Of a DNA stretch of 64,000 nt, positions 11,003 through 40,828 are shown piece by piece (position 1 is the stretch's first letter; each line of letters opens with the position of its first letter). Made by a program: the position numbers and the translations under genes. The DNA is taken from NCBI GenBank assembly GCA_017983435.1, contig JAGOBM010000001.1, positions 47,916-111,915 of the forward strand, read 5' to 3'. The notes below the pieces were generated by a model that saw nothing but the letters and a program-made list of their open reading frames with translations, searched no databases and had not been told where the DNA came from. Origin of the DNA: Candidatus Moraniibacteriota bacterium (GTDB lineage: Bacteria; Patescibacteriota; Minisyncoccia; Moranbacterales; UBA1568).

Positions 11003-11030
11003 TAGACAAAAGCCCGGATTTCGCTATAAT
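11003..11030 (+). promoter_or_regulatory. Candidate sigma70 promoter for the tRNA cluster: TAGACA, 16-nt spacer, TATAAT.
   Basis: Hexamers seen directly upstream of the first tRNA-derived sequence. Confidence 0.35.
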
Positions 11031-11041
11031 GGCTGAGTATC

Positions 11042-11059
11042 TGATCGGGCCCATAGCTC
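11042..11059 (+). repeat. 18-nt partial copy of the tRNA-Ala 5' end (TGATCGGGCCCATAGCTC), duplicated 100 nt upstream of the intact gene.
   Basis: Identical 18-mers at 11042..11059 and 11142..11159. Confidence 0.7.
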
Positions 11060-11146
11060 CCTAGAGAGGCGGGTAAACATTTGGCAGAGCGCGCTTGGGC
11101 GTGTAGGTGCTCCGGTGGATACTCTGTTTGGTTTTTGAAAATGATC

Positions 11147-11219
11147 GGGCCCATAGCTCATTTGGTAGAGCACCTGCTTTGCACGCAGGGGGTGAGCGGT
11201 TCGAATCCGCTTGGGTCCA
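11147..11219 (+). tRNA. tRNA-Ala(TGC).
   Basis: Cloverleaf folds by hand; anticodon loop CTTTGCACG; G3:U70 alanine identity pair; no encoded CCA. Confidence 0.85.
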
Positions 11220-11296
11220 CCCTTGATTTTCTCGGATGCCTGGGGTACACTGGGCAACGTGGTGATCGAACCGGTTTTTTATTGTTGGAATTTCCC

Positions 11297-11370
11297 GGGC
11301 GATTAGCTCAGTTGGTTAGAGCGCGACACTGATAATGTCGAGGTCCCAAGTTCGAATCTTGGATCGCCCA
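11297..11370 (+). tRNA. tRNA-Ile(GAT).
   Basis: Cloverleaf; anticodon loop ACTGATAAT; acceptor stem GGGCGAT/ATCGCCC. Confidence 0.85.
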
Positions 11371-11395
11371 CACCGGCCATGTATGGCGGTATTAT

Positions 11396-11469
11396 AGCGG
11401 GGTAGAGCAGTCTGGCAGCTCGCTTGGCTCATAACCAAGAGGTCGGTGGTTCAAATCCACCCCCCGCAA
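11396..11469 (+). tRNA. tRNA-Met(CAT), possibly the initiator: A11:U24 pair and an unpaired 1-72 position.
   Basis: Cloverleaf; anticodon loop CTCATAA; D-stem GAGC/GCTC gives A11:U24. Confidence 0.65.
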
Positions 11470-11482
11470 CAAATGGAAAGAG

Positions 11483-11556
11483 GGCAGGGTAGCTCAGCCG
11501 GTTAGAGCACAGCACTCATAACGCTGAGGTCGTGGGTTCGATTCCCACCCCTGCTA
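11483..11556 (+). tRNA. Second CAT-anticodon tRNA, either elongator Met or tRNA-Ile2 (lysidine).
   Basis: Cloverleaf; anticodon loop CTCATAA; T-arm GTGGGTTCGATTCCCAC. Confidence 0.65.
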
Positions 11557-11580
11557 CACTTGAAAAAAGAACCAAGAACC

Positions 11581-11640
11581 AAGCTCCAATAACCAAGTAG
11601 CGTATTTCCTTGGTGATTGGATTTTGGTAATTGGAGCTCG
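11581..11640 (+). other. Stem-loop of about 60 nt between tRNAs (CAAGCTCCAATAACCAAG ... TTGGTAATTGGAGCTCG), possibly a processing or spacer structure.
   Basis: Near-perfect inverted repeat seen directly. Confidence 0.4.
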
Positions 11641-11652
11641 AATAGAGTCTAT

Positions 11653-11726
11653 GGGGGCGTAGCTCAGCTGGTTAGAGCGCCACACTGTCACTGTGGAGGT
11701 CGCGGGTCCGAATCCCGTCGCTCCCG
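11653..11726 (+). tRNA. tRNA-Asp(GTC).
   Basis: Cloverleaf; anticodon loop CTGTCAC; discriminator G73. Confidence 0.8.
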
Positions 11727-11735
11727 CCCATAGAA

Positions 11736-14319: not shown

Positions 14320-15435
14320 ATGGAAACCGTTCCGTTTGAAGCGATTCTCGAACAGGCGCGTCTGGCGCCTTCGGGGGACAATATCCAGCCGTGGCTGGTG
14401 AAGATCATTTCGGAGCATGAGCTGTGGATTTTCAAGAATCAGCCGGATTTCATCTCGCCGTCGGATTATTTCCGGGGCGGATTGTACTGTGGCGTCGGAG
14501 CATTCATCGAAGTGATTGTCATCGCGGCGAGCCAGCATGGGTTCGCGGTCTCGGTGACCTATACAGAAGATATCGGTCCGGAGACCGGACATCTCGCTTC
14601 ACTCCTGTTTTCGGTGCTTCCAGATTCGGAGCAGCCGGAGCTTGATCGACCGCTGTACCTCGCATTGCCGGACAGGCGGACCGACCGTCGCCGCTATATG
14701 AGAGAGGCACTCGATCCGGGCATCATACGGCAGATGGAGGAAATAGCAGCTCATCTGGGCGGGCACGCGATATGTCTGAGTGATCCATCAGCGCTGAAGC
14801 AGCTGAGCAAGGCTTTCTCGAAACACGATGATTTTTTCTGGACCAGCGATGAAGGGCCTCGTGAAGATCTGGTGAAACTGGTGCATCGGTCCAGATCTTC
14901 TTCAGCTCCGAGTGTCGGCATGCCAAGCGATACACTCGGCCTCGGATGGAAGGGGTCTTGGTTACCGCTGATATTTCGGATAGCATACTTTGTTCCTGGA
15001 CTCTGGAAAATCATCGGATGGCAGTCGAAATATGTTTCGGAGGACCTGATGCAGCACTCGGGAGCTCTCGTGCTAATCACACTGCCGAAGCGGAGAAAGA
15101 AAAAGATTTTTGAAACAGGCTATCAGTTTTCAGATGATATAGTGGGCGGACGCATCATGCTGCGGCTCTGGCTCTTGGCGACGACGCTCGGCCTCAGTGT
15201 ACAGCCGACGTATGCGCTGGTGGCGCAGATGCAGAACGAGGGCAATACCCACGAAGGCGAGCGTTTTCTTCGACTGAATCGGGAAGTGGTCGCGGAGCTG
15301 ACCAGCATAGTCCCGGCGCTGGAACGCGAGACATTGGTCTTCGCCTTTCGTATCGGAAAACCGATAGTATCTACTCCGGTACCGAGTTCGCCGCGCAAGT
15401 CCCTCAAGGATATCATCTGGAGCGTGGCAGAGTGA
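14320..15435 (+). CDS. Nitroreductase-family protein with two nitroreductase-like halves.
   Basis: N-terminal APSGDNIQPW, a typical nitroreductase FMN-site motif; 371 aa. Confidence 0.6.
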   Translation: METVPFEAILEQARLAPSGDNIQPWLVKIISEHELWIFKNQPDFISPSDYFRGGLYCGVGAFIEVIVIAASQHGFAVSVTYTEDIGPETGHLASLLFSVLPDSEQPELDRPLYLALPDRRTDRRRYMREALDPGIIRQMEEIAAHLGGHAICLSDPSALKQLSKAFSKHDDFFWTSDEGPREDLVKLVHRSRSSSAPSVGMPSDTLGLGWKGSWLPLIFRIAYFVPGLWKIIGWQSKYVSEDLMQHSGALVLITLPKRRKKKIFETGYQFSDDIVGGRIMLRLWLLATTLGLSVQPTYALVAQMQNEGNTHEGERFLRLNREVVAELTSIVPALERETLVFAFRIGKPIVSTPVPSSPRKSLKDIIWSVAE

Positions 15436-15561
15436 TAGGGGGGCAATATAATACACAAAAAACCTATCTTTATGAGACAGGTTTTTTGTCTGGCTGGAGC
15501 AATATCAATGAGTGGATCCTGGTGGTTTCCACGGACAGGTCGGGTCGAGCACGATTTCTCT

Positions 15562-16293
15562 TCACATCATCTTGTACCAGAGATGGTAGCCGGCACTGGA
15601 TGGATGGATGCCATCCTTGGCAAAGAAGACCCCGGGTTTCTGTCGGAAAGGGTCTGTCGAATCAGCCGTGAGCAGATCGATGAATTTGACGTGATGGGCA
15701 TGAGCGGCTTGGCGGAAAATATCTCTTTGTCGGAGGGCGCGGCGGCCGAGATAACGGCGGAGCCAGCGGGGAAACAGGGGGGCGGATCCGATATTGCTGT
15801 ACCCGAGCAGGATGACGTGCTGTGTCGAAATACGGTTCGCCCAATCAAGTATGATTGAGAGCTGTCGCTCAAGCTTGGTCGGGGAGCTCAAGTGCCAGAT
15901 ATCGTTGCCGCCGATGCTGATGATGACGAGATCGTAGCAGGCGCTCCCGATCGATTGCAGGGTCGGGAGGAGATCACGGACGCGCGCTCCGTTGCTCGCG
16001 CGGTTATGGATCGTGATCTGCGGGATATCGTGCGCGAGCTTGCCGGAGAGGGTATCTTCCGGCCGGTCGGCTCCGGTACCGACGGCCGTGCTGTCACCCA
16101 AGATGAGTATTTTTTTGAGTGGGTAGCGATGCTGTATGGAAAAGGCTCTCGCTCGATTGGCTAGGGATCGATTCACGCTGAGATGCCAGAGCATCTTGAG
16201 CGCCGAAAGCACGATGAACACATCGATGATCAGGAGTATGGATTCGAGAGTCGTTTCAGCGTCGGAAAGACTGATGAGCGGAGTTGGATTCAT
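15562..16293 (-). CDS. SGNH/GDSL hydrolase with an N-terminal TM anchor.
   Basis: ILILGDSTAVGTG (block I), SIGGNDI (block III), C-terminal DGIHPS. Confidence 0.7.
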   Translation of the reverse strand: MNPTPLISLSDAETTLESILLIIDVFIVLSALKMLWHLSVNRSLANRARAFSIQHRYPLKKILILGDSTAVGTGADRPEDTLSGKLAHDIPQITIHNRASNGARVRDLLPTLQSIGSACYDLVIISIGGNDIWHLSSPTKLERQLSIILDWANRISTQHVILLGYSNIGSAPLFPRWLRRYLGRRALRQRDIFRQAAHAHHVKFIDLLTADSTDPFRQKPGVFFAKDGIHPSSAGYHLWYKMM

Positions 16294-16302
16294 GGGTGTG
16301 AA

Positions 16303-17043
16303 TCAGGATTTGCGGAGCTGGTCGGTCCAGCCATGCTCCTCGAGGGATTGCTTGAGGGCGATATACCAAAGCGCGTAGCCATCGCCGGAGGGATGGATAC
16401 GGTCAGCGGCGAAATATTTTCGGCGGTGCAAGTGCGCGGGAATTTTTGGTACATTGGTGTAGAGATCGATATAGATGAAGTCTCCTTTTTTAGAGCGATG
16501 GAGGGCGAAATCTCGTATGTGTTTGGCGCGCCAGGAGAACAGAAGGGAGAGTGGGAAACGGAAATACGGTATCGATCCAAGATCGGGAGGGGTGACAAGT
16601 ATGATGCGCGGGGCGATATGTTTCGCCATGCGGAGTATCGACGCGATATTCGAGCGCAGGGTACGGAGTGATCTGAGGCCCATGATATCGATGCCGCCGA
16701 TATGGATGATGAGCAGGTCAGCCTTCCATTCCGGATGCTTGGCGGTAAGCAAGGCGACGAGATCAGCAGAGCTCGCTCCGTTGATGCCGTGATTGATGAT
16801 CGTGATATCGGGGAAATCATGAGCGAGACGGCCAGCTACCGACTGTGTGGAGTGCTGCGCGCCGGTACCGACGGCGGTGCTGTCGCCGATACACATGACG
16901 GTCGCACTTGGATGATTGATGAAGCGGCAAAAAGGTACAGCTATACGTCCGAGCCGCCGAGCAGTCAGGCCATTCGATATCATACGGGACACCTCGGAGA
17001 CTACGTAGGTGATGATGATGCTGATGGCAAGTGGAAGTGGCAT
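16303..17043 (-). CDS. Second SGNH/GDSL hydrolase, a tandem paralog of the previous gene. Start taken at the ATG at 17043; the upstream part of the long ORF is antisense to the ftsX-like gene.
   Basis: VMCIGDSTAVGTG, IHIGGIDI, DRIHPS; same domain order as 15562..16293. Confidence 0.65.
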   Translation of the reverse strand: MPLPLAISIIITYVVSEVSRMISNGLTARRLGRIAVPFCRFINHPSATVMCIGDSTAVGTGAQHSTQSVAGRLAHDFPDITIINHGINGASSADLVALLTAKHPEWKADLLIIHIGGIDIMGLRSLRTLRSNIASILRMAKHIAPRIILVTPPDLGSIPYFRFPLSLLFSWRAKHIRDFALHRSKKGDFIYIDLYTNVPKIPAHLHRRKYFAADRIHPSGDGYALWYIALKQSLEEHGWTDQLRKS

Positions 17044-17112
17044 AAGTCTCTCGCATTCTAGCGTGTTTTCTGACCGTATCCAAGTATGAACATGTGTTAG
17101 AATGAAAGAGCT

Positions 17113-18318
17113 ATGATGACTCTGTCTACTTTTTTCTTGTTGGCATCGTATGTGATCCGGGATATCGCTCGGAGCCGCATGCTTTTTGCGTTGATTGTCT
17201 CGGGTCTCTCGGTGGCGTCGGCGGCCATCCTGTTGACGGTCGGCGTGTTGAACGGTTTTCAGACCATGTTGGGTGATAGTGAACGGGGATGGTTGTCTGA
17301 TATCGTCATTACCCCGACTGGTGATGACCGGACAATCGCTGAAAACTCGCGTCTTGAAGCCGAATTGGCCGCGATGGAGGGCGTCGAGGCGTTCAGTCTG
17401 CGGAGCCAGGGAGGGCAGATACTCGTGCGGTACGAGGAGGAGAAAACCAGCCCTTTTTTGACGATCGGGATCGATACGGCCAGCACGGAACAAGCGACAT
17501 TGCTGTCTTCCCGGGTCATTGAGGGGAGTTTTTTTGAGAGTGGCATAGAGTATTCGAATGAAGTCGTGCTCGGAAAGATCATTGCAGATAGTCTGGTCGG
17601 GAGCACGGATGACGGCCGATCGGTCGGGGCGGGTGATGATCTCTATGTCCTCGGTCCGCATGGCGAATCGAAGCGGTTCCGTGTCCGGGGTATTATCGAT
17701 GCCAAGACTTTTTTCCCAAACTGGAGCCTCTTCATGACCAAGCAGGAATATGAAAAACTTGATCCTGCCGGGCGCAACGCGCAGATGGTCGTCAAAATCA
17801 AGCCGGGTGTCGAGAGAGCGGTAGTGATCCGGTCCTTGCAGGATCGATTTCCAAAGGCAAATATCAGAACCTGGGAAGAAGAATCGAAATACGTGCAAGA
17901 CATCATGCTGGCGGTGTCATTTATCACACAGTCTATCCATTATCTCTTGGTCCTGACGATATTTACGATTGTCAGTGTCGTTATCTATATCAATATCAGC
18001 CAGAAGAAGCGGCAGATCGGTATCCTGAAATCGATGGGCGCCGAAAATCGTTTCATTCTTTCCGCATATCTGCTGGAATCGTGTACATACGCAGGTGTCG
18101 CGTTTGTTATCGGCTGCCTGATTTTTTTCGCTCTGTACTCCGTGTCCTCTCAGCATCCGTTACCGATGTTGATCGGTGATTTCCGCATCGTGTTTTCTCT
18201 TGATATCCTGATTTCAGCCTGGATCACGGTGTTTGTCGCTACACTGGGTGGGGGATTCATACCGGCGTATATGGCTTCTCGGACACATATCATCGATGTT
18301 ATGCGCGGGACTGTCTGA
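17113..18318 (+). CDS. ABC transporter permease, FtsX/MacB-like: N-terminal TM, periplasmic domain, three C-terminal TMs.
   Basis: Topology and FtsX-like C-terminal TM bundle. Confidence 0.75.
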   Translation: MMTLSTFFLLASYVIRDIARSRMLFALIVSGLSVASAAILLTVGVLNGFQTMLGDSERGWLSDIVITPTGDDRTIAENSRLEAELAAMEGVEAFSLRSQGGQILVRYEEEKTSPFLTIGIDTASTEQATLLSSRVIEGSFFESGIEYSNEVVLGKIIADSLVGSTDDGRSVGAGDDLYVLGPHGESKRFRVRGIIDAKTFFPNWSLFMTKQEYEKLDPAGRNAQMVVKIKPGVERAVVIRSLQDRFPKANIRTWEEESKYVQDIMLAVSFITQSIHYLLVLTIFTIVSVVIYINISQKKRQIGILKSMGAENRFILSAYLLESCTYAGVAFVIGCLIFFALYSVSSQHPLPMLIGDFRIVFSLDILISAWITVFVATLGGGFIPAYMASRTHIIDVMRGTV

Positions 18319-18329
18319 TTTTTGAACCT

Positions 18330-19067
18330 ATGCTATCACCTCTATCTCTATCACCATCGAACGAGAGCGCTACGCCGACGCTTCCGGTGCGGACGCTGGT
18401 ATCGGTCAGGCATCTGAGGAAAGAATACGCTCCGCGAGGCGGGGTGCCGGTCACCGCTTTGGCCGGTGTGGATCTGGATATCCTTATGGGTGAGTTCGTG
18501 GCGATCACTGGTCACTCCGGATCAGGGAAGAGCACGCTCCTGCATCAGATCGGACTCTTGGATGAGCCGACGAGCGGGAGTATCTTTATCGCCGGCAAGG
18601 ATGTTGCCGCGTTTTCCGAGGCGATGCGGACGGATTTCCGTCTCCGTTCGCTCTCGTTTGTGTTCCAGTTCTTCAACCTGATCGAGCATTATACGGCCCT
18701 GGAAAATATCACCTTTCAGCTGCGCTTGCAGGGGTATGGCATGCGCGACTCCGATGCCAAGGCTCAAGAAATCCTCAATTTCCTCGGATTGGCGGATCGG
18801 GCGGATCTCTTGCCGAAGGAGTTGTCCGGTGGCGAGCAGCAGCGTATCGCTATCGGACGGGCGCTAGCGAAGGATTCCTTGCTCCTGATTGCCGATGAGC
18901 CGACCGCCCATCTGGATTCCAAGAACGCTGAGATCATCATCGATCTGTTGAAACATGTGAACAAGGAGTTCGGGAAGACGATCGTGCTCGTGACGCATGA
19001 GCCGGAAGAAGCCCGGCAGGCTGATCGGATCATTGAGTTGCGGGACGGGAAGATTATCCGGGGGTGA
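18330..19067 (+). CDS. ABC transporter ATP-binding protein (MacB/LolD-like).
   Basis: GHSGSGKSTLL, LSGGEQQR, LLIADEPT. Confidence 0.85.
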   Translation: MLSPLSLSPSNESATPTLPVRTLVSVRHLRKEYAPRGGVPVTALAGVDLDILMGEFVAITGHSGSGKSTLLHQIGLLDEPTSGSIFIAGKDVAAFSEAMRTDFRLRSLSFVFQFFNLIEHYTALENITFQLRLQGYGMRDSDAKAQEILNFLGLADRADLLPKELSGGEQQRIAIGRALAKDSLLLIADEPTAHLDSKNAEIIIDLLKHVNKEFGKTIVLVTHEPEEARQADRIIELRDGKIIRG

Positions 19068-20671
19068 TGCGATTTTGCTCCGTGGATGCTATACTAGGAG
19101 AGATAGAATCTATGCTGGGATCTTGGTGGAAATTCATTCTTGTGCTTCTTGCGGGCATCGTTCTGGCCGTTGTTTTCTTTTTCAGAGATGAGCTCTTTGG
19201 TCGATCTGTCGCGATCATGGGCGGTGAGCTGGTCGAGCTGGTCGATGGTCGTCGTTCGGTGCGGATCAGTGGTGCCAAATTGGTACCGGTCAGTGAATAT
19301 TCGCTGTCCGCTCCGTATGCTGCCAAGGTGGACTCAATCCTGGTGGATGAAGGCGATGTCGTGGGTGCGGCCGGATCAGGCGTGCTCAAGCTGGATACTG
19401 CCGAGCTCGAGCTCGAGTTGAAAAAATACGAGTCATTGCTGGCGCGCGAACGCACCATCGTCGAGAAGCTCCGGCAGGGCACGCGCTACGAAGAACTCGT
19501 GATCGTGCAGCAGCAGAAGAAATCAGCTGAGTCATCCAAGAAGACCATCGGGCAGTCAGCAGTACAGGCGTTGTACAGCGCGTTCGTCCAGGCGGATGAT
19601 GCCATCAGGAACCAGACTGACCCGATGTTCTCTGATCCTGAAGGATCAGACCCACAGCTCTCTTTCGCCGTGGCGGATACCGATCTTGAAGCGGAGATCG
19701 AGAAGGACCGGGAAGCGCTTTCTGGACGATTGCGTGACTGGAAAGATCTCGTGAGCGATATCAAAGCCGGCGATGATTTGGAAAAGCGTTTTGAGAAGAC
19801 CGAATCGAATCTGCGTGCTGTCCGGGAATATCTGGATGAAGTGGCATTGGCGGTCAATAGCTTGTCAGCCGGGGCGGTCTCGCAGTCGACTATCGATGCC
19901 TGGAAGGCGGCGACACTCGTGGCTCGATCCGATGTCGAAGCGGCCGCTGCTGCGATGAGTGAATCCCGATCGGGGTATGCAACTGCCAAGCAGGGAGTAC
20001 TCGTCGCGACCCGCGAGTTGGATCTGCGCATCGCGGGTACCGATAAGCAGGATATCGAGGTGGCGCTGAACGCTGCTGACGCCGCGCGTACCCAGATGGA
20101 GATCATCGCAGAGCGACTGAGGCAGGCGACTGTTTCGACGCCGGAGAATAATCTGCTCGTGAAGAGGATTATTCCGGAGAGAGGTGAATTCATGACGGCC
20201 GGGCTGCCGGTAGCGATCGTGGCGAGTCCGGATATGGAGATCGAAGCGGATGTCGCGGAAGAAGATCTGCGTGGCATCGAGATAGGGAGCGAAGTGCTGT
20301 TGCGGCTGACCGCGTTTCCTGATCAGGACGTACATGGAAAGATTTCCGAAATCGAGGGACAGGAGATCGAGCGGGAAGGCAGCGTCTATTTCAGAGTGCA
20401 TGCCGCGATCGATACGGCGGCGCTCGGGTCAAAACTGAAGCTGCGCTCCGGTATGACTGGCGATCTGGTCGTCGCGACCCGCGAGACCGGGAAGATCATT
20501 CTGGTGCCGAAGCAGCTGGTCTCGTATCGTGATGGGAGAAGTTTTGTGCGAGTAGTGTCTCTGGATACTGGATCGATACGGGAAAAGATGATCGAGACCG
20601 GTATGGCGCAGGGCGAGGATGTGGAAGTGCTTTCCGGTGTCAGTGTCGGAGAACGGATAGTCAGAGAATAG
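19064..20671 (+). CDS. Periplasmic adaptor/membrane-fusion protein of the HlyD/MacA family.
   Basis: N-terminal TM, long coiled-coil, beta-barrel C-terminus; coupled to the ABC genes. Confidence 0.65.
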   Translation: MMRFCSVDAILGEIESMLGSWWKFILVLLAGIVLAVVFFFRDELFGRSVAIMGGELVELVDGRRSVRISGAKLVPVSEYSLSAPYAAKVDSILVDEGDVVGAAGSGVLKLDTAELELELKKYESLLARERTIVEKLRQGTRYEELVIVQQQKKSAESSKKTIGQSAVQALYSAFVQADDAIRNQTDPMFSDPEGSDPQLSFAVADTDLEAEIEKDREALSGRLRDWKDLVSDIKAGDDLEKRFEKTESNLRAVREYLDEVALAVNSLSAGAVSQSTIDAWKAATLVARSDVEAAAAAMSESRSGYATAKQGVLVATRELDLRIAGTDKQDIEVALNAADAARTQMEIIAERLRQATVSTPENNLLVKRIIPERGEFMTAGLPVAIVASPDMEIEADVAEEDLRGIEIGSEVLLRLTAFPDQDVHGKISEIEGQEIEREGSVYFRVHAAIDTAALGSKLKLRSGMTGDLVVATRETGKIILVPKQLVSYRDGRSFVRVVSLDTGSIREKMIETGMAQGEDVEVLSGVSVGERIVRE

Positions 20672-20688
20672 CTGAACTGATTGATGCT

Positions 20689-21312
20689 ATGGAATACTTG
20701 TGTCGGGAGGCGAATGGAGTAGCGGAAAGAACGGAGGCTCGGGCTATCGTGCTCGCCGAATACGCCCGGAGCGGATATATCTCCCAGGAAGATGCGCAAG
20801 CGGGTATCGCCGGTGTGTTGCCGAGCGATGCGGCTGTCGATTCGCCCGCCAGCACGACGCTGGTGATCCCCTCCGGGGAGCGTATCGTCGGTACGGTTTC
20901 AGTTGTTTTTGATTCGCCGGTCGGGTTTCCGATGGACAGCCTGTATCATGATGAGCTCGAGGCGCTTCGGAAGGACGGTCATCAGCTGGCTGAGGTCGTG
21001 CAATTGGCGACCGATCAGGATTTTGTGGCCGGCTTGCCGGGTATCGGCGGAGGGTTGGCGCTGATCCTCCCTCTTTTTCAGGGGGTGTTGCAGCTCGGAA
21101 AAGAGCGGGGAGTGGATGGTTTCTGTATCACTGTCAATCCGAAACATGACCGATTTTATGCCGAAATAGGCTTCGTGCCTCTTGGCCCAGAACGGCAGTA
21201 TGAAGCTCTCGGAGGGGCTCCGACTCTGCCGAAGATACTCTACTGGCAGTCGATCCTGGAGCATTCGGACCAACAAGGCCCCCTTTCCCGTTTACTCACA
21301 GATGCGGTATGA
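20689..21312 (+). CDS. GNAT-fold acyl-ACP-dependent N-acyltransferase-like protein (OlsB/N-acyl amino acid synthase/LuxI-like).
   Basis: C-terminal GVDGFCITVNPKHDRFYAEIGFVPLG resembles PF13444-type acyltransferases; a PlsC-like gene follows directly. Confidence 0.4.
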   Translation: MEYLCREANGVAERTEARAIVLAEYARSGYISQEDAQAGIAGVLPSDAAVDSPASTTLVIPSGERIVGTVSVVFDSPVGFPMDSLYHDELEALRKDGHQLAEVVQLATDQDFVAGLPGIGGGLALILPLFQGVLQLGKERGVDGFCITVNPKHDRFYAEIGFVPLGPERQYEALGGAPTLPKILYWQSILEHSDQQGPLSRLLTDAV

Positions 21313-21328
21313 TGAGACACAAGAAAAT

Positions 21329-22030
21329 ATGCGTAGAGATACCCGTACAACCGTAGTGATAGGCCGATGGCGCGCGATGGCGAGCAATCGGGTGATTTTT
21401 CTGGTGCAGCTGGCTTCATATTTCATCCTCTATCTCCCTCTGCTCATCTTTTTCCGTTCGCATCGTCTGCTTTCAGGCAATATCCGGCAGCTTGATCGCG
21501 GGGCGCTCCTGATCGCGAATCATCAGTCGATCGCTGATCCGTTCATCGTGATGGGTAATCTCCCGTTTTCAGTCTTCATCCGGCTTTTGCCAGTCCGCTT
21601 CCCGACCGATCATGATTATATGCAGTTGCCGGTGACTGGTCAGCTCCTCCGATTCTTCGGGTGTTATGATGTCGGGGCGACGCCGCGATTGCGGATGTGC
21701 ACGCTGCTTAAGACCTGTGATCTCCTGCGTTCCGGGGAGACGGTGTTCTTGTTTCCGGAAGGCTCGATCGCTCGCTCCGAGATGAAGGAGTTCAATCGGG
21801 GTATAGAATTTTTCATCCGTGAGTCCCGGTCGGTAGTCTTTGTCCGCATGGACGGATTCAATGAACCGATCGCGGATCATATCATCGAGACTGGGCGGAC
21901 GCTCTGTTATGGGGAAGTGCGGAGTGCCGACGATCTTGAGCACGACGCTCGTTCTCTCCGGGAGTCCTTCGATTTTTTGACGGGACATACCGAGAGCGTC
22001 GGATGGCAGCCTTCAAACCAAGAAGCCTAA
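21329..22030 (+). CDS. Lysophospholipid/lyso-aminolipid acyltransferase of the PlsC/OlsA-like family. Start ambiguous between 21302 and 21329.
   Basis: HXXXXD motif NHQSIAD and FPEGS block. Confidence 0.7.
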   Translation: MRRDTRTTVVIGRWRAMASNRVIFLVQLASYFILYLPLLIFFRSHRLLSGNIRQLDRGALLIANHQSIADPFIVMGNLPFSVFIRLLPVRFPTDHDYMQLPVTGQLLRFFGCYDVGATPRLRMCTLLKTCDLLRSGETVFLFPEGSIARSEMKEFNRGIEFFIRESRSVVFVRMDGFNEPIADHIIETGRTLCYGEVRSADDLEHDARSLRESFDFLTGHTESVGWQPSNQEA

Positions 22031-22051
22031 TCATATATCTGAGGTACCTCT

Positions 22052-22915
22052 ATGGAACAGGAAGCCATGACCTATTTTCGTGAGGCATTCGCACGAAATA
22101 TTGGTATTCTCACGATTGAAGAGCAGGAGAAACTGCGTTCATCGACGATAGCCATCGCTGGACTCGGTGGTGTCGGTGGAGCGCATGCACACGGGTTCGC
22201 TCGTATGGGAGTCTGCCGTTTCCATCTGTCGGATCTGGATATCTTCGAGACCGTGAATATCAATCGGCAGTTCGGAGCGAATCGTGATACGTTTGGGAAA
22301 CCGAAAGTGCTCATGGTTCGCGACCAGGTCTTGGCGATCAATCCGTATGCTGAGATTGAAATATTTGAGCAGGGATTCTCGGAGGCCAATGCGGAAGAGT
22401 TTTTTCGGGGAGTCGATCTGGCTATCGATGGGCTGGATTTCTTCAGTATCGATGCGCGTCGCATATATTTCCGGGAAGCGCGCAAGCGGGGGATACCGGT
22501 CGTTACCGCTGCCCCGATCGGATTCGGATCAGCCGCTTATGTCTTCACTCCGGAGGGGATGAGCTTCGATGAGTATTTCGATCTGCACGACGGTCTGGAA
22601 AAGAAAGAGCTGCTTTTCCGGTTCGCGATCGGTCTGGCTCCGGCGATGCTGCAGCGGAAGTATTTCCGACCGACCACTATCGATTTCGATGATCATGCTG
22701 CTCCATCCATCGTATCGGGGATATTGGCAGCCGCGTCGATAGCGACCACGTTCGGTGCTCAGGTGCTGCTCGGGAAACCGATATCGGCCGCGCCGCATTC
22801 GATTCATTTCGATCCGTACGTGTTGCGTTATCGGCAGGTCTATCTTCCTTTCGGCAATCGTTCTCCTTGGAGACGGCTCATCCGTGAGATCGCTCGGAGA
22901 CTGTATCTGAAATAA
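22052..22915 (+). CDS. ThiF/MoeB/E1-like adenylyltransferase-fold protein (ThiF/HesA/TcdA-like).
   Basis: Rossmann motif IAGLGGVGGAHAHGFARMG. Confidence 0.75.
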   Translation: MEQEAMTYFREAFARNIGILTIEEQEKLRSSTIAIAGLGGVGGAHAHGFARMGVCRFHLSDLDIFETVNINRQFGANRDTFGKPKVLMVRDQVLAINPYAEIEIFEQGFSEANAEEFFRGVDLAIDGLDFFSIDARRIYFREARKRGIPVVTAAPIGFGSAAYVFTPEGMSFDEYFDLHDGLEKKELLFRFAIGLAPAMLQRKYFRPTTIDFDDHAAPSIVSGILAAASIATTFGAQVLLGKPISAAPHSIHFDPYVLRYRQVYLPFGNRSPWRRLIREIARRLYLK

Positions 22916-22923
22916 GACTGGAT

Positions 22924-23562
22924 ATGGAAGTTGCTTTTTCCCTGCCGGCGGATATTGATGGAGACTGGTTTGCGGAGGATGAGCCGGCTCTGTGGCCGGA
23001 GCTGACTGCGGACAAGCGCGTCGCCCGCATGCTCGGGAGGATCGCAACCAAGAAGGCTACCGTTCAGTATCTTCAGCAGGAAGGTATAGTCTGTGCGCCG
23101 AGGTCCGTGGTGGTACACAACGATGCTCTCGGTGTGCCTTTTGTTTCAGTTGATGCCGTGACTCGAGAGGATATCCGGATCAGCCTGAGTCATGAGAGCG
23201 CGGGAGCGGTGGCAGCAGTAGGCTCATCGGCAACGCCACGGTTCGGAGTCGATATCGAACGTATCCGATCTTTTGATGCTCGCTTTCAGGCGGATTTTCT
23301 CTCCCCGGAAGAACAGCAGATAGTGGCGATACTGCCAGTAGCTGAGCAGTCTCATGCTCTGACGCGGTATTGGTCGATCAAGGAAGCCTGTCTCAAGGCG
23401 CTCGGGACCGGTCTGCGAGAACATCCACATACGCTCTCGGTACGGGATATCGATCCGGGGAAATACGGGATTTTTCGTGCAGACAGGCTGATCGGGGAGG
23501 GGAGCGAGCTCCCAGTGCCGATAGCGGGGCGGATCGCGGTCATCGTGCATCTTTCGGAATGA
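22924..23562 (+). CDS. 4'-phosphopantetheinyl transferase, Sfp/EntD type.
   Basis: FGVDIERI and WSIKEACLKALG motifs. Confidence 0.75.
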   Translation: MEVAFSLPADIDGDWFAEDEPALWPELTADKRVARMLGRIATKKATVQYLQQEGIVCAPRSVVVHNDALGVPFVSVDAVTREDIRISLSHESAGAVAAVGSSATPRFGVDIERIRSFDARFQADFLSPEEQQIVAILPVAEQSHALTRYWSIKEACLKALGTGLREHPHTLSVRDIDPGKYGIFRADRLIGEGSELPVPIAGRIAVIVHLSE

Positions 23563-23595
23563 TACGCTATACTGGGCGCGATAAGCTTTTTAAGC

Positions 23596-23841
23596 ATGAA
23601 ATTACGTATGAGTACCGATCTACTGCAGCGCGTGCAGACGCTAGTATCGAGAGTGACGGGCAAGGATGCTAAGATGATTCAGCCCGAGATGAAAATTGAT
23701 GACCTGGTCACCGATTCGATCGAGCTCTTCCGGTTGATTATGGCTTTTGAGGAGGAGTTCAAGCAGAGGGCTGATTATAAGGAATTGATGAAAATAGAGA
23801 CGGTCGCCGATATCGTCGCGTATCTGGGTCGTCTCCGTTAA
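23596..23841 (+). CDS. Acyl carrier protein.
   Basis: Ser attachment motif DDLVTDSIELFRLIMAFEEEF; 81 aa. Confidence 0.7.
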   Translation: MKLRMSTDLLQRVQTLVSRVTGKDAKMIQPEMKIDDLVTDSIELFRLIMAFEEEFKQRADYKELMKIETVADIVAYLGRLR

Positions 23842-23868: not shown

Positions 23869-23898
23869 GCATCCCTCCTGATCGGAGGGATTTTTTTT
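23869..23898 (+). terminator. Intrinsic terminator after the ACP gene.
   Basis: CATCCCTCCtgatcGGAGGGAT followed by T9. Confidence 0.7.
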
Positions 23899-24009
23899 TC
23901 GAGCAGACTGGCTTCTATCGGCGCTCGTTCTGCGATATCTGGCGGCTTTCGTCAACGGTGTCGGCCATCCGATTGTGCGCTATCATGAAGGGGATAATCC
24001 TTTCTGCGT

Positions 24010-25086
24010 ATGTCAGGAACATTGACGAGACATCCGGTCGCTCAGGCCCTCGAGCATTCACTCGGGATGTTTGTCGTGACGGATCGTGACGGAGTGGCGC
24101 TCTATGCCAATGACGGAGCGGCTCGCCGCACCGGCTATGCGGTCGCTGAAACGGTCGGCAAGAAGCCAGGGAAGCTCTGGGGCGGCCATATGCCACGCGC
24201 GTTTTATGACCATCTCTGGGAGACGATCGATGCTGGACAGCCGATCGTGGCCGATCTTGAGAATCAGCGCAAGGACGGACGTCTCTATGCCGAGCGGGTG
24301 CATATCGCACCGATACTTGGTACTGGTCGAGAACCGCAATTCTTCATCGCTGCGCAGCCGTTCCACCTCGAGAGCGCGGAGGCACTCGATCGTTTCGGTG
24401 TTGAATTCAGGTGGTTCTTCTCGACCGGCACAAAAATATCCGATCTCCGTTTCATCGAGTGGATCAATCGCTGGTTCACAGCTGAGCGCGATCCGGAGGG
24501 AAATCATTCTTCTGGTTCGACAGCGGGCTTCATCGAGAGCGAGCTAGTCGATCCGCTCCGCGAGCGGTTCGCTGCCCGCGAGGAAGACCGGGTGCTGATC
24601 GAAGCGGCGCAGGCGGATGCCCGGGAGTTTCGGGAGCTCTACGCCAAGTATCAGGATCTGGTACGGCAGTACTTCCTCCGGCATCTCCGCTATGATCGCG
24701 ATGTGGCGGATGACCTGACGCAAGACACCTTCTATCGGGCTCTCTCGTATCTCCCGGGCTTCACCGCGACCAACGCTTCCTACGGGACCTATCTCCTCCG
24801 GGTCGCGCACAATCTCCTCGTCAATCACTATCGGAAAAAGAAGACGCTCGGCCTGTTTGACGAGCGCATCGCGAGCGAGGTAAGCGGAGTCGCCGCGCCC
24901 GAGCCGCTTTCCGTGTGCCAGATTTTTGATTCGCCGCTCCTGCGTCCGGCTGAGCGCCGCATCCTGTCGATGAAATACCAGGAGGGATTCGCGGTGCAGG
25001 AGATAGCCGCTCTGCTCGGTACTTCCGAGAATGCGGTCAAGCTTCGGCTCTCTCGTGCCCGGAAGCGTCTGCGGGGCCTACTGTAA
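24010..25086 (+). CDS. ECF-type sigma-70 factor with an N-terminal PAS-like sensor domain of about 180 aa.
   Basis: Region 2 (DLTQDTFYRALSYLPGF) and region 4 (RILSMKYQEGFAVQEIAALLGTSENAVKLRLSRARKRL) at the C-terminus; PAS-like N-terminal half. Confidence 0.65.
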   Translation: MSGTLTRHPVAQALEHSLGMFVVTDRDGVALYANDGAARRTGYAVAETVGKKPGKLWGGHMPRAFYDHLWETIDAGQPIVADLENQRKDGRLYAERVHIAPILGTGREPQFFIAAQPFHLESAEALDRFGVEFRWFFSTGTKISDLRFIEWINRWFTAERDPEGNHSSGSTAGFIESELVDPLRERFAAREEDRVLIEAAQADAREFRELYAKYQDLVRQYFLRHLRYDRDVADDLTQDTFYRALSYLPGFTATNASYGTYLLRVAHNLLVNHYRKKKTLGLFDERIASEVSGVAAPEPLSVCQIFDSPLLRPAERRILSMKYQEGFAVQEIAALLGTSENAVKLRLSRARKRLRGLL

Positions 25087-25325: not shown

Positions 25326-27524
25326 ATGCCGGTCTACAAAATACAGAAGCGCAACGGGTCGATCGTGGATTTCAATCTCGAGAAGATAGAGGAGGCGATC
25401 AGTCATGCGGCGGCCGCGACCGGCAAGCACGACGAAATCGTCGCGCAGGTGCTGGCAGCCGATGTCTATGCCCGGCTCGAGGAGGAATTCGCCGACCGGA
25501 TTCCGGCCGTCGAGGAAGTGCAGGATATCGTCGAAGATATGCTCATTCAGTACGGTTACGCCGAGACCGCCAAGGCCTATATCCTCTATCGGCAGAAGCG
25601 CCGCGAAGCGCGCGAAGAGAAGAACGTCGTGGTCGAGGTGGAGAAGGCGATCCGTGAGTATCTCGAGAAACTCGACTGGCGGGTCAATGCCAATTCGAAT
25701 CAGGGCTACTCGCTCGGTGGCATGATCCTCAATACCGCCGGCAGCGTCATCGCGAACTACTGGCTCTCGCATATCTATCCGAAGGCGGTCGGCGACGCGC
25801 ATCGCAATGGGGACTATCATATCCATGATCTCGATATGTTTTCCGGCTACTGCGCCGGCTGGAGCCTGCGGGTATTGCTCGAGGAGGGTTTCAACGGCGT
25901 GCCAAACAAGATCGAATCGGCGGCTCCGAAACATCTCTCATCAGCCGTCTCGCAGATGGTCAATTTTCTCGGGACGCTTCAGAACGAATGGGCGGGCGCG
26001 CAGGCTTTCTCAAGCTTCGATACCTACCTCGCTCCGTTCGTGAAGAAATACGAGCTGGAGCTTCGGGAAGATATCGGCCGCTATGGCATGGCCTTCACAG
26101 ATGACGCGGCTCGTGAGCGCTATGTCGTTGAGAAGGTCTACGAGTACACGCATCAGAATATCCAGTCTTTCGTTTTCAATCTCAATATCCCGTCGCGTTG
26201 GGGGACGCAGACACCATTTACAAATATCACGCTCGACTGGGATGTGCCGGAAGACATGCGCGAGAAGCGTCTTGTGCTCGGCGGCGAGCCTTTTGCTTAT
26301 ACCTTCGGCGAGCTCCAGCCTGAGATGGATGTCATCAACCGCGCTTTTATCGAAGTGATGTCCCGCGGCGACCGCAAGGGGCGCACCTTCACCTTTCCGA
26401 TTCCGACCTACAATATCACCAAGGATTTCGATTGGGCCGACGAGAAGAATCTGCCGCTCTTCGAGATGACTGCCAAGTACGGCACGCCGTATTTCCAGAA
26501 CTTCGTGAATTCAGAGCTCAACCCGGGCGATGTCCGTTCCATGTGCTGCCGGCTCCAGCTTGATCTCCGAGAGCTCAGGAAGCGCGGTGGCGGTCTCTTT
26601 GGCTCGGCTGAGATGACCGGTTCGATCGGCGTTGTCACGATCAACGCAGCCCGGCTCGGCTATCTCTATCGCGGGGACAAGGAGAAGCTCTTCGAACGGC
26701 TCGGCTACCTGATGGAGCTCGCCAAAACATCGCTCGAGATCAAGCGCGAGGAGATACAGAAATGGATCGACCGAGGACTCTTCCCGTATACGAAGCGCTA
26801 TCTCGGTTATCTACGCAATCACTTCTCGACTATCGGTGTGAACGGTATCAACGAAGCGATCCGCAATTTCACCGAGGACCGGGAGAATATCTCGACACCG
26901 GAGGGGCAGGCCCTGGCCAAAGAGATTCTTGATTTCATGCGCGAGCGGATCAAAGATTTTCAGGAGGAGACGAACAACTACTACAATCTCGAAGCCACAC
27001 CAGCCGAGGGGACGACGTACCGGTTCGCCAAGGAAGACAAGAAGCGTTTCCCAGATATCATCCAGGCCGGGACCGCCGAAGCGCCCTACTATACCAATTC
27101 CTCCCAGGTACCGGTCGAGTATAGCGATGATATCTTCGAAGTGCTCGAGCTCCAGGATGAGCTCCAGCGCAAGTATACCGGCGGCACGGTGCTGCACTGC
27201 TACATGCACGAGAAGGTGAGCTCGGGCGAGGCCTGCCGCAATCTCGTCCGCTCGATACTCTCGAATTTCCGCCTGCCATATATCACTATCACGCCGACCT
27301 TCTCCATCTGTCCGAAGCACGGCTATCTCGAGGGAGAGTGGGACTACTGTCCGAAGTGCGATCACGAGCTTGGTATTGAGGACGGGGAGCGCTACGATAC
27401 GGAGCTGCACAAGACCTATCGGAGCGAGCTCGCTCGGACAGCAGTAGTCCCGAAGAAAAAACCAGTGATGAAAAAGAAGCCGATCGCCAAAAAGAAGCCA
27501 GTATCATCAAAGAATAAAAAATAA
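25326..27524 (+). CDS. nrdD: Anaerobic ribonucleoside-triphosphate reductase (class III) with ATP-cone, C-terminal Zn-ribbon and a Lys-rich tail.
   Basis: ATP-cone N-terminus, NrdD core, C-terminal CPKHGYLEGEWDYCPKC, then KKKPVMKKKPIAKKKPVSSKNKK. Confidence 0.9.
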   Translation: MPVYKIQKRNGSIVDFNLEKIEEAISHAAAATGKHDEIVAQVLAADVYARLEEEFADRIPAVEEVQDIVEDMLIQYGYAETAKAYILYRQKRREAREEKNVVVEVEKAIREYLEKLDWRVNANSNQGYSLGGMILNTAGSVIANYWLSHIYPKAVGDAHRNGDYHIHDLDMFSGYCAGWSLRVLLEEGFNGVPNKIESAAPKHLSSAVSQMVNFLGTLQNEWAGAQAFSSFDTYLAPFVKKYELELREDIGRYGMAFTDDAARERYVVEKVYEYTHQNIQSFVFNLNIPSRWGTQTPFTNITLDWDVPEDMREKRLVLGGEPFAYTFGELQPEMDVINRAFIEVMSRGDRKGRTFTFPIPTYNITKDFDWADEKNLPLFEMTAKYGTPYFQNFVNSELNPGDVRSMCCRLQLDLRELRKRGGGLFGSAEMTGSIGVVTINAARLGYLYRGDKEKLFERLGYLMELAKTSLEIKREEIQKWIDRGLFPYTKRYLGYLRNHFSTIGVNGINEAIRNFTEDRENISTPEGQALAKEILDFMRERIKDFQEETNNYYNLEATPAEGTTYRFAKEDKKRFPDIIQAGTAEAPYYTNSSQVPVEYSDDIFEVLELQDELQRKYTGGTVLHCYMHEKVSSGEACRNLVRSILSNFRLPYITITPTFSICPKHGYLEGEWDYCPKCDHELGIEDGERYDTELHKTYRSELARTAVVPKKKPVMKKKPIAKKKPVSSKNKK

Positions 27525-28030
27525 TCAGCACGCATATGACGCAGGCACACACAGCAGTCGAACGGACCCGGTGCGAGGTATGGACGAGGGTGATGGGGTA
27601 TCATCGGCCGGTCTCTCATTTCAATATCGGCAAGAAGTCCGAGCACTACTCCCGCAAGCATTTTCAGGAGACCGTCGTAGCCAACCATGATTTCTGCCGG
27701 AAGTACGCCGAAGCTGGATGCTGAAATCGCCGATGAGGGTACGCGGAGACATTCTTTGGAAGTTTCGATCGACCATGTTTCTGAGGATCGCTTTGTTTCC
27801 GACGCAAGCGCCGCTAGAAAATTTCCGTGGCCTGAGCGCAGCATAAGGTAACAGGAAATTTCCTCGGCGCGGCGTTGTGAAACAATCGATACCAGAAGCG
27901 GTCGGGCGGGGCTTTCAAAGAGTGTCTCGCGCGATTTTGTAGAGCCATTCTGTCTTGTTCCTCTGAATTTTTTCTGGCTGCCGCCAGTCATCTCTTCGGA
28001 AAGTTTGTTTATGTGTAGCTTATTTCTTCT

Positions 28031-28738
28031 ATGCTTATCAGTGGCGTGACCAAACTGACCCTGATCGATTTCCCCGGCAAGACTGCTTGCATCGTTTTCA
28101 CAGCGGGCTGCAATTTCCGTTGCGGGTACTGCCACAATCCTGAGTTCGTCCTGCCGGAGCGGCTCAAGGAGATCGCGCCGGGCTTCATTCCTGAGGAGAC
28201 GATGCTCGGCTTCCTCAAGCGCCGTCAGGGCATGCTCGAGGGAGTGGTCATCACCGGCGGGGAGCCGACGCTTCACCCGGATCTCGAAGTGTTCATCCGG
28301 AAGGTGCGGGCACTCGGCTACGCTATCAAGCTCGATACCAATGGCAATCGGCCGGAGATGTTGCGTCGATTGATCGATGCGGAGCTCCTCGACTCTGTCG
28401 CCATGGATTTCAAGATCGATCACACCCGCTACCCTGGTCTCGTCGGTCCGGGCGCGGATCCGGAGAAAATCCGGGAGAGCTTCGATCTGCTCAAGGAGGG
28501 GCGAGTGCCGTACGAGTTCCGGACGACCTTGGTGCGGGAGATACATACGGACGAGGTGTTGGCGGATATGCGGCGCGAACTCAGGGGAGCGGCGCGCTAT
28601 TTTCTCCAGACATTCCGGCCGGGCATCGTGCTCCATCCATCGTTCGCCGGGTACCATTCGTTCTCCCGAGAGGAGATGCAGGAAATAGCGGATGACTTTT
28701 CCGCTGTGGTCGGAGAAATCGGCGTCCGTGAAGAGTGA
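28031..28738 (+). CDS. nrdG: Anaerobic RNR activating enzyme (radical SAM).
   Basis: CNFRCGYCHN radical-SAM cluster motif. Confidence 0.85.
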   Translation: MLISGVTKLTLIDFPGKTACIVFTAGCNFRCGYCHNPEFVLPERLKEIAPGFIPEETMLGFLKRRQGMLEGVVITGGEPTLHPDLEVFIRKVRALGYAIKLDTNGNRPEMLRRLIDAELLDSVAMDFKIDHTRYPGLVGPGADPEKIRESFDLLKEGRVPYEFRTTLVREIHTDEVLADMRRELRGAARYFLQTFRPGIVLHPSFAGYHSFSREEMQEIADDFSAVVGEIGVREE

Positions 28739-40816: not shown

Positions 40817-40828
40817 CGCCACTCACCC

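Follow-up and report, generated by a model that had tools for sequence, protein, structure and literature searches.

The DNA analysed here, referred to below as the window, is a 64,000-nucleotide stretch of contig JAGOBM010000001.1 (assembly GCA_017983435.1, positions 47,916 to 111,915 of the forward strand) from a Candidatus Moraniibacteriota bacterium; all coordinates are positions within it. Positions 14320–23841 are interpreted, with a probability of roughly 0.7, as a cluster for the synthesis and export of an acyl-oxazolone (tyrazolone-like) lipid built on an N-acylated aromatic amino acid. This biosynthesis-and-export cluster most likely comprises 11 genes, and is most likely an acyl carrier protein (ACP)-dependent, exporter-linked, Patescibacteria-specific variant of the acyl-oxazolone/N-acyl tyrosine pathway. 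A preliminary description of the same DNA was limited to the last five genes (20689–23841), which it read as a possible aminolipid module built around an OlsB/OlsA-like acyltransferase pair. Those five plus-strand open reading frames (ORFs) are present where that description placed them, tightly spaced with intergenic gaps of 8–33 bp, and Pfam supports all of them, with one start codon revised; they form the tail of a same-strand run that begins at 17113. Outside the coordinates first described lie a flavin oxidase gene (14320–15435), two GDSL lipase genes and a MacB-type exporter. The description of the genome as a reduced one also holds, the source being a Ca. Moranbacteria metagenome-assembled genome (MAG).

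The first of the five genes (20689–21312, plus strand) encodes a 207-amino-acid (aa) protein that matches the Pfam FeeM family (PF21926) at E=4.4e-30, with a score of 105 bits against a cut-off of 27. FeeM (PDB 2G0B), obtained by cloning DNA of uncultured soil organisms, synthesises N-acyl tyrosine, has FeeL as its ACP and serves as the structural archetype of N-acyl amino acid synthases. The alignment of the window protein with 2G0B (E=6e-25) spans 163 residues, 38% of them identical. Active-site Glu95 of FeeM has been proposed as the catalytic residue, His145 and Phe148 have been implicated in contact with the ACP or its phosphopantetheine, and FeeM is one of few GNAT enzymes that depend on a carrier protein. 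When mapped by motif, which leaves a possible numbering offset of 1–2 residues, the proposed catalytic Glu is kept as E102 in LAEVVQ, and the carrier-contact His and Phe are kept as H153 and F156 in NPKHDRFY. In the Pfam scan of this protein, PF21926 was the only match at E≤0.1, and PF13444, the OlsB/GlsB-type family, gave none. By homology, then, the 207-aa protein is a true N-acyl amino acid synthase, of the FeeM type and not the OlsB type. It is predicted to acylate the amino group of an aromatic amino acid from acyl-ACP, with tyrosine as the best guess for the amino acid. The carrier-protein dependence of FeeM fits the private ACP and phosphopantetheinyl transferase (PPTase) found in the window; these had already been put forward as the likely acyl-donor system of the N-acyltransferase.

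The third gene (22052–22915, plus strand) encodes a 287-aa ThiF-like protein (Pfam ThiF, E=3e-37), classed here as a putative ATP-dependent cyclase of the TyzB/OxzB-N/TrzS-N type. Initially treated as an extra beside the acyltransferase pair, it is instead the best-conserved member of a synthase/cyclase/oxidase trio. It scores 322 bits with NCBIfam PRK08223 (cut-off 266), and also matches PRK14851 (E=2e-87), PRK14852 (E=8e-60) and the ThiF part of the Rv1355c family (E=5e-19). Its closest solved structures, PDB 9EGB and 9EGC (E=3e-13), are titled “THIF-type NAD/FAD binding fold domain-containing protein”, and no publication was found for either. The family has an invariant GxGGxGG motif together with invariant R72, K85 and D129. 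D129 aligns with D130 of MoeB and corresponds to D217 in the ThiF adenylation motif of TrzS, where an alanine variant abolished cyclisation. The single Cys of the window protein is not conserved, and since the family has neither a conserved Cys nor a zinc-type CxxC, its features point to a cyclase and away from an E1 of the sulfur-transfer kind. No gene for a ThiS/MoaD small carrier was annotated in the loci inspected, although no dedicated search for beta-grasp ORFs was made.

The gene for the flavin-dependent oxidase (14320–15435, plus strand) lies 6.6 kb upstream of the ThiF-like gene, and the FeeM-family gene lies 740 bp upstream of it. The 371-aa oxidase belongs to the nitroreductase superfamily (Acg/TyzC/TrzS-C-terminal type). 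It matches the NCBIfam Acg family of flavin mononucleotide (FMN) oxidoreductases over its full length (E=5e-30), the Rv1355c (TrzS) family over positions 378–702 (E=7e-25) and PRK14851 over positions 331–659 (E=2e-15). A sequence search of the PDB gave no Acg-type structure, so the homology rests on the NCBIfam models. ThiF-linked homologs of the oxidase share an invariant APSGDNIQPW motif and several invariant Arg residues. In the related loci numbered L005, L059, L091, L101, L111 and L113, the oxidase gene adjoins the ThiF gene. Gene fusions also join the three proteins. The NCBIfam model PRK14852 (989 aa) represents a FeeM, a ThiF and an oxidase part in one protein and covers all three window proteins (synthase at 36–189, ThiF at 310–589, oxidase at 621–748); PRK14851 and the Rv1355c family are ThiF-oxidase fusions.

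The combination of these three proteins has precedents in the acyl-oxazolone makers OxzAB of Pseudoalteromonas rubra and further Proteobacteria (de Rond et al., bioRxiv 10.1101/2020.06.11.147165) and TyzACB and TrzAS of Mycobacterium tuberculosis (PMC10404671, PMC12856293). In these pathways, Tyr, Phe or Trp is first N-acylated, the product is cyclised by an ATP-dependent ThiF-type enzyme, and the ring compound is desaturated by a flavin enzyme that uses O2, giving N-acyl tyrazolones or tryptazolones; tyrazolones absorb near 360 nm. The product expected of such a pathway is a 2-alkyl-4-arylidene-oxazol-5-one. For the N-acyl dehydrotyrosines that Stieleria, Thalassotalea and Massilia make, the same trio has been put forward (PMC12479983). 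The synthase, the ThiF-like protein and the oxidase of the window most likely constitute this trio, judging from their family assignments.

The window differs from each of these systems. It shares with OxzAB the N-acyltransferase, the ThiF-like cyclase and the oxidase of the nitroreductase type. Two domains of one protein make up OxzB, while the genes of the window are separate and 5 kb apart, and OxzA uses acyl-coenzyme A (acyl-CoA) (bioRxiv 10.1101/2020.06.11.147165). OxzAB comes without an ACP, a PPTase, a PF01553 acyltransferase or lipases, all of which are present in the window. In M. tuberculosis, the three activities sit on separate proteins in TyzACB (Rv2336–Rv2338c) and are fused in TrzS of TrzAS (Rv1356c/Rv1355c). 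A lipid exporter gene lies nearby in both organisms, but the exporter families differ: mmpL9 in M. tuberculosis, MacB in the window. TyzACB and TrzAS draw on acyl-CoA donors and desaturate with O2 in an aerobe, whereas the window has a private ACP and belongs to a likely anaerobe. The clusters of Stieleria, Thalassotalea and Massilia, which make stieleriacines and thalassotalic and kyonggic acids, share the synthase, ThiF and nitroreductase genes, often with a methyltransferase; they have no ACP, PPTase or acyltransferase, and the products isolated are open-chain dehydro-acids and not oxazolones. A methyltransferase like that of the stieleriacine clusters is absent from the window but present in its own relatives (L001–L004) and in L111: a gene for an S-adenosylmethionine-dependent enzyme adjoins the oxidase or ThiF gene there (e.g., L003 2694–3365; L111 8077–8784, minus strand). 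Where the relatives have the methyltransferase, the window has its second GDSL lipase.

The distribution of the trio was examined from the ThiF-like protein outwards. Its relatives number over 3000, and a scan of one genome per species gave 80 loci at 40–48% identity; neighbourhood counts for the synthase and the permease cover 8 kb around the ThiF homolog, and the hidden Markov model (HMM) for the oxidase was built from domain envelopes only, leaving out the ThiF domains of fused ORFs. The oxidase is adjacent or fused to ThiF in 55 of the 80 species loci. A FeeM-like synthase was found in 52/80, the synthase and the oxidase together in 39/80, and a MacB-type permease in 18/80. Pfam spot checks of loci from Motiliproteus, Thauera, Undibacterium pigrum and a metagenome contig agree with these counts. 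In some Proteobacteria (L008/L075, L044, L010), the trio is found within polysaccharide loci of the PEP-CTERM/exosortase type or beside PEP-CTERM proteins and MMPL or MacB transporters, a placement that ties the oxazolone trio to the older observation that such synthases accompany exosortase systems. A ThiF homolog with 42% identity also occurs in a MAG labelled Nanoarchaeota (DPANN) (L017 7530–8393), with no oxidase or synthase detected within 7–10 kb.

The acyltransferase, PPTase, ACP and GDSL genes have a much narrower distribution. Among the 80 species loci they occur only in three Patescibacteria loci, which argues that they are a Patescibacteria-specific extension of the widespread trio. 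Loci with all four come from Saccharibacteria (L011), Paceibacteria (L059, L064), Ca. Kaiserbacteria (L113), unclassified members of the Patescibacteria group (L005, from Patescibacteria MAG GCA_018971045.1, and L091), a further MAG (L092, which like L091 is a MAG in addition to that of L005) and the window's own relatives (L001–L004). The full set, in shuffled order, consists of two GDSL genes, the three exporter genes (MacB, ATPase and fusion protein), those for the synthase, the ThiF-like protein, the acyltransferase, the ACP and the PPTase and, as a rule, that for the oxidase; it is also present on many metagenome contigs. Retention of the gene set, with its order shuffled, in more than 10 independent Patescibacteria lineages indicates that the arrangement is not due to chance. 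In a neighbour-joining tree of ThiF, the Patescibacteria sequences group together, which is no proof of monophyly. Two irregularities were seen among these loci: L005 has another gene of the FeeM family (17326–17913), which stands alone about 7 kb away from the cluster, and in L092 the ThiF gene is in two ORF pieces (10699–11681) within an otherwise complete cluster, due to a frameshift or pseudogene or to an assembly error. Literature searches joining oxazolones or N-acyl amino acids with Patescibacteria or the candidate phyla radiation (CPR) returned nothing relevant.

Comparison of the synthases connects this cluster type to the fee cluster, from which FeeM derives. FeeM is 69% identical (113/164 residues) to the synthase of the Ca. 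Kaiserbacteria cluster (L113 12500–13099), which has the same 11 genes as the window. It is 68% identical to the synthase of L111 (10377–10976), whose ThiF is 75% identical to that of Kaiserbacteria, and 59–61% identical to synthases of clusters from Paceibacterota and other Patescibacteria. In L113, L111 and the clusters at 59–61%, the ACP gene lies directly upstream of the synthase gene, as feeL does before feeM. The 69% identity and the shared ACP-synthase order suggest that the fee cluster, compared here through FeeM, very probably belongs to the same cluster type as the window. The sequence similarity also suggests that FeeM came from a Kaiserbacteria-like genome, within the Patescibacteria. 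The fee cluster and the window share the synthase family, including the Glu proposed for catalysis and the His and Phe implicated in ACP contact, and the fee cluster has a dedicated ACP beside its synthase; the window synthase itself represents a distant branch of the FeeM family. The source papers for the fee cluster and for FeeM and FeeL are Brady, Chao & Clardy (2002) and Van Wagoner & Clardy (2006). The products of the fee cluster are reportedly enol esters and acyl phenols.

The second gene of the five (21329–22030, plus strand) encodes a 233-aa acyltransferase of the PlsC fold (LPLAT, PF01553; E=2e-12) with an N-terminal membrane helix. Its start is most likely the ATG at 21329, which gives the same length as in relatives, and not the TTG at 21182 that would overlap the synthase gene. 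The HXXXXD and FPEGS motifs noted previously were both found, as NHQSIAD (H65 and D70, counted from ATG 21329) and FPEGS (142–146). Invariant in the family are NHxSxxDP (H65, D70), G(C)YDVG and FLFPEG. At the positions of PlsC blocks II (FxxR) and III (EGTR), the family has G(C)YDVG and FPEGxI, such that both arginines are absent; in PlsC, these arginines bind the glycerol phosphate of the lipid substrate. The protein scores 27.3 bits with the PlsC model TIGR00530, against a cut-off of 102.95, and its best NCBIfam match is the acyltransferase region of Aas (E=3.7e-14). In an AlphaFold model (mean predicted local distance difference test score, pLDDT, 77), a long N-terminal helix accompanies the PlsC fold, and the best structural match of the model is Thermotoga maritima PlsC (5KYM; TM 0.54, probability 1.0, 17% identity). 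The family of the ACYLTRANSFERASE is narrow: a word-indexed search of 5.8 billion sequences found 15 clusters. A search with the family alignment placed the acyltransferase beside ThiF, PPTase, ACP or synthase genes in 19/20 metagenome loci, the exception being a truncated fragment, and the commonest gene order was ThiF-acyltransferase-PPTase-ACP-synthase. Because the acyltransferase is bound to the cluster and has no phosphate-binding arginines, it is, on the evidence of its motifs and gene neighbourhoods, an LPLAT-fold enzyme dedicated to the cluster and not a housekeeping PlsC. A housekeeping PlsC next to an unrelated GNAT had been named as the outcome that would count against a lipid or aminolipid pathway; what was found is a FeeM-family synthase and a cluster-specific PF01553 protein.

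Two roles for the acyltransferase are possible, and they are rated about equally. By analogy with OlsA and GlsA, it may catalyse a second, ester-forming acylation from acyl-ACP; the fatty-acid enol esters reportedly produced by the fee cluster would need such a step. Alternatively, it may load the ACP by transacylation from scavenged lipid. Lysophosphatidic acid acyltransferases can run backwards, giving acyl-CoA. Patescibacteria have been reported to lack fatty-acid synthesis and to recycle lipids taken from other bacteria, and the loading role would explain why the acyltransferase, ACP, PPTase and lipases come together only in this phylum. Some apparent relatives of the acyltransferase were discarded. 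A fusion of an AMP-ligase, an ACP and a PF01553 domain near an oxidase and ThiF in a locus outside the Patescibacteria (L030) had an HMM score of E=1e-56 that was circular, as the sequence was part of the HMM; pairwise BLAST gave only E=0.007, and the fusion with its MFS neighbour is a generic Aas/LplT-like pair. Pfam did not bear out the PF01553 matches that the first HMM run had suggested in loci of Thauera and Azoarcus.

The remaining two genes of the tail encode the carrier system. An Sfp-type 4′-phosphopantetheinyl transferase (22924–23562, plus strand; 212 aa; Pfam ACPS PF01648, E=2.9e-17) has HetI as its best NCBIfam match (E=1.7e-13) and contains the motifs GVDIE (108) and WSIKEA (150). 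The dedicated ACP (23596–23841, plus strand; 81 aa), in a FeeL-like position, matches Pfam PP-binding at E=2.9e-10 and has its Asp-Ser site at residues 40–41. It scores 51 bits with NCBIfam ACP models, below their cut-offs, and is thus a divergent ACP. The strong terminator reported after this gene is present: an intrinsic terminator at 23871–23900 (plus strand; ATCCCTCC-TGATC-GGAGGGAT then T9) has an 8-bp stem with 5 G-C pairs followed by nine T, and closes the operon.

Upstream of the synthase gene, the same-strand run encodes a MacB-type tripartite exporter, as judged by Pfam and NCBIfam. The MacB/FtsX-type ABC permease (17113–18318, plus strand; MacB_PCD and FtsX, each E=2e-13) has a periplasmic core domain and four hydrophobic segments. 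A separate ABC ATPase of the LolD/MacB/DevA type (18330–19067, plus strand; Pfam ABC_tran E=4.5e-31) matches TIGR02211 LolD at E=1.5e-63 and the DevA family at E=1e-51. The gene for a membrane-fusion protein of the HlyD/RND-adaptor type (19064–20671, plus strand; Pfam HlyD_3 E=6e-10, TIGR01730 RND_mfp E=4e-24) overlaps the ATPase gene by 4 bp, and its product has an N-terminal anchor. Divergent from this run are two tandem GDSL/SGNH lipase-acylhydrolase genes on the minus strand, with the oxidase gene next upstream of them. The first lipase (15562–16293; Pfam Lipase_GDSL_2 E=1.4e-21) has an N-terminal hydrophobic anchor at residues 18–36. The second, its paralog (16303–17043, start ATG at 17043), has GDS and DRIHPS motifs and matches GDSL genes of L001–L005, L011, L059 and L064 at E=1e-18 to 7e-91. 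A 531-aa antisense ORF (16303–17898, minus strand) crosses the permease gene; only its C-terminal third, the second lipase, is real, and the remainder was rejected as a long-ORF artefact. A promoter scan of the cluster showed no enrichment over shuffled sequences, and an Rfam scan found no RNA element within it.

From the assembled homologies, catalytic motifs, gene fusions and conserved synteny, we infer what the enzymes act on and in which order, where the acyl chains come from and what is finally made, as follows. The PPTase would convert the private 81-aa ACP to its holo form, and the ACP would carry a fatty acyl chain. With acyl-ACP as the donor, the FeeM-family synthase would use this chain to N-acylate an aromatic amino acid. 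The ThiF-like enzyme would then adenylate the carboxylate with ATP, allowing the amide oxygen to close a 5(4H)-oxazolone ring, into which the nitroreductase-type flavin oxidase would put a C-alpha/C-beta double bond. Removal of the lipid from the membrane would fall to the MacB-type transporter and its membrane-fusion protein. The PlsC-fold acyltransferase and the two GDSL lipases would be a Patescibacteria add-on for acyl handling that replaces missing fatty-acid synthesis and acyl-CoA pools. In this add-on, the lipases would free acyl chains from scavenged lipids, and the acyltransferase would act in one of the two ways set out above, loading the ACP by transacylation or spending acyl-ACP on an additional acylation that forms an ester.

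Several observations weigh against this pathway. The oxidase gene lies about 5 kb from the rest of the cluster, beyond two minus-strand genes, and no oxidase was detected nearby in the Patescibacteria loci L011 and L064. One further locus, L098, has the acyltransferase, PPTase, ACP and synthase genes and no ThiF. Together, these loci suggest that the oxazolone may be an intermediate or optional. Homology of the window proteins to TyzB, TyzC and OxzB was traced through NCBIfam models and the uncharacterised synthase-ThiF-oxidase operon of U. pigrum (L083), to whose ThiF the window protein is 43% identical; U. pigrum has a validated oxzAB pair (bioRxiv 10.1101/2020.06.11.147165), to which L083 may correspond. 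The characterised enzymes OxzA, TyzA and TrzA use acyl-CoA and not acyl-ACP. No enzyme for loading the ACP is visible in the cluster or elsewhere in the window, which includes no adenylating ligase, and no genes for fatty-acid synthesis, PlsX/Y/C, AasS or a second ACP were seen among the approximately 45 ORFs scanned in the window; of these absences, those of fatty-acid synthesis and of a ligase are the unfavourable ones. The oxidases TyzC and TrzS need O2. An anaerobic ribonucleotide reductase is encoded directly downstream of the cluster (25326–28738), and many homologous clusters are in sulfate reducers, which puts the electron acceptor for an O2-type desaturation in doubt. Finally, the amino acid and the chain length of the product are guesses.

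In a bolder version of the proposal, the cluster is a self-contained device: the anchored lipases, together with the PlsC-fold enzyme running as a transacylase, would transfer acyl chains of host or scavenged phospholipids to the private ACP without ATP, or the oxazolone itself would serve as acyl donor for the acyltransferase, and the exported, reactive acyl-oxazolone would act on the host bacterium. This version is speculative and, in our estimation, unlikely to be correct in full.

One alternative explanation is the two-step membrane aminolipid pathway first suggested for these genes. In that scheme, an OlsB- or GlsB-like enzyme would form a lyso-aminolipid from 3-hydroxyacyl-ACP, the PF01553 protein would esterify the 3-hydroxyl as OlsA or GlsA does, and ThiF would be unrelated. 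An N-acyltransferase beside a PF01553 O-acyltransferase is indeed the standard two-step aminolipid logic, the likeness holding at the superfamily level; the HX4D motif is intact, and the private ACP and PPTase make acyl-ACP a likely donor. The part of the original suggestion that stands is thus an aminolipid-type module with an N-acyltransferase and a PF01553 neighbour. However, the N-acyltransferase falls in the FeeM family where OlsB and GlsB fall in PF13444, and ThiF, the oxidase and an exporter are integral to the window and not to the Ols or Gls systems. In Patescibacteria loci, no gene is linked more closely to the acyltransferase than ThiF, which also travels with the oxidase and synthase across phyla. 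A dedicated exporter favours a secreted product over a bulk membrane lipid, and no source of 3-hydroxyacyl-ACP is evident. We therefore consider the OlsB/OlsA or GlsB/GlsA scheme improbable.

A second alternative is housekeeping lipid salvage, where the lipases, acyltransferase, ACP and PPTase would re-acylate lysophospholipids in the manner of Aas to supply the membrane of the cell itself, and the synthase, ThiF-like protein and oxidase would draw on the same acyl-ACP pool. The similarity of the acyltransferase to Aas, which uses an ACP, fits this idea, as do the reported dependence of Patescibacteria on recycled lipids and the restriction of the four salvage components to Patescibacteria loci. 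Yet the window enzyme has neither the adenylating domain of Aas nor phosphate-binding arginines, there is no acyl-ACP synthetase domain, and the score with the PlsC model is far below the cut-off. The acyltransferase also keeps to the synthase/ThiF cluster in 19 of the 20 metagenome loci. Little credence is given to salvage as the primary function.

A third alternative assigns the ThiF-like enzyme itself to the loading step: it would adenylate free fatty acids for transfer to the ACP by the acyltransferase, and in Patescibacteria the pair would stand in for the missing ligase as an E1-style acyl-ACP synthetase. The attraction of this proposal is that ThiF and the acyltransferase are the commonest adjacent pair in Patescibacteria loci, that none of the other biosynthetic enzymes in the cluster uses ATP, and that no other ACP-loading activity is visible. 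It is hard to reconcile with the 40–48% identity between the Patescibacteria ThiF and the ThiF of proteobacterial trio operons, with the same invariant residues, or with the retention of the oxidase partner in most Patescibacteria clusters. L098 keeps the acyltransferase, PPTase, ACP and synthase in the absence of ThiF, and this arrangement likewise makes an essential loading function for ThiF very doubtful. Lastly, clear ThiF/MoeB adenylation-domain homology, and the resemblance of an E1-like protein plus a nitroreductase-fold dehydrogenase to azole-peptide machinery, could suggest a classical sulfur-carrier E1 or a cyclodehydratase partner working with a SagB-like nitroreductase on a ribosomally synthesised peptide (RiPP/TOMM-type), but this is scarcely credible given the lack of a conserved Cys and of a CxxC zinc site, the absence of YcaO, rhodanese, ThiS/MoaD or precursor-peptide genes from the annotated loci, and the fusion of the ThiF family to FeeM in PRK14852.

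The genes that flank the cluster look unrelated to it. They encode a DEAD-box helicase, a PAS-ECF sigma factor and NrdD/NrdG, and are kept only in close relatives. Directly after the cluster terminator, a PAS sensor domain is fused to a sigma-70 factor of the extracytoplasmic function (ECF) type (24010–25086), a position kept only in L001–L004. Elsewhere in the window, a low-GC island at 40000–50000 (36–45% GC, compared with about 55% elsewhere) is probably a horizontally acquired defence island. Its genes encode an SNF2 helicase with a PLD nuclease domain (41180–44488), an Eco57I-type DNA methylase with a TaqI-like specificity domain (44485–47610), a protein with an AbiJ N-terminal domain (48547–49368) and a PaaX/Cas2-like protein (50155–50760). 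An Rfam DUF3800-II RNA motif (RF02961; 54071–54132, minus strand; 65 bits, gathering score 43) is located just downstream of a DUF3800 gene (53405–53953) and overlaps the start of a TfoX-like ORF (54004–54525). Five tRNA genes (Ala-TGC, Ile-GAT, Met, Met, Asp) are clustered at 11147–11730, with no rRNA genes nearby.

Exact-sequence look-ups show that public annotation lists the synthase (KA731_00280) and the oxidase (KA731_00250) as “hypothetical protein” and the ThiF-like protein as “ThiF family adenylyltransferase”; the assignments made here correct that annotation. They would extend the acyl-oxazolone pathway past the Proteobacteria and Actinobacteria, in an ACP-dependent, exporter-linked form found in likely anaerobes, a setting that raises the question of what substitutes for O2 in the desaturation. 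If the proposed device that turns harvested acyl chains into an effector were real, it would reveal a new way of making acyl-ACP, its product would be the first secreted lipid effector defined for ultra-small episymbionts, and it would also place the long-orphan fee cluster from environmental DNA in the Patescibacteria. Patescibacteria have tiny genomes with few known biosynthetic clusters, and the cluster at 14320–23841 is a testable candidate for acyl-chain handling, secretion, and host communication or harm in this group.

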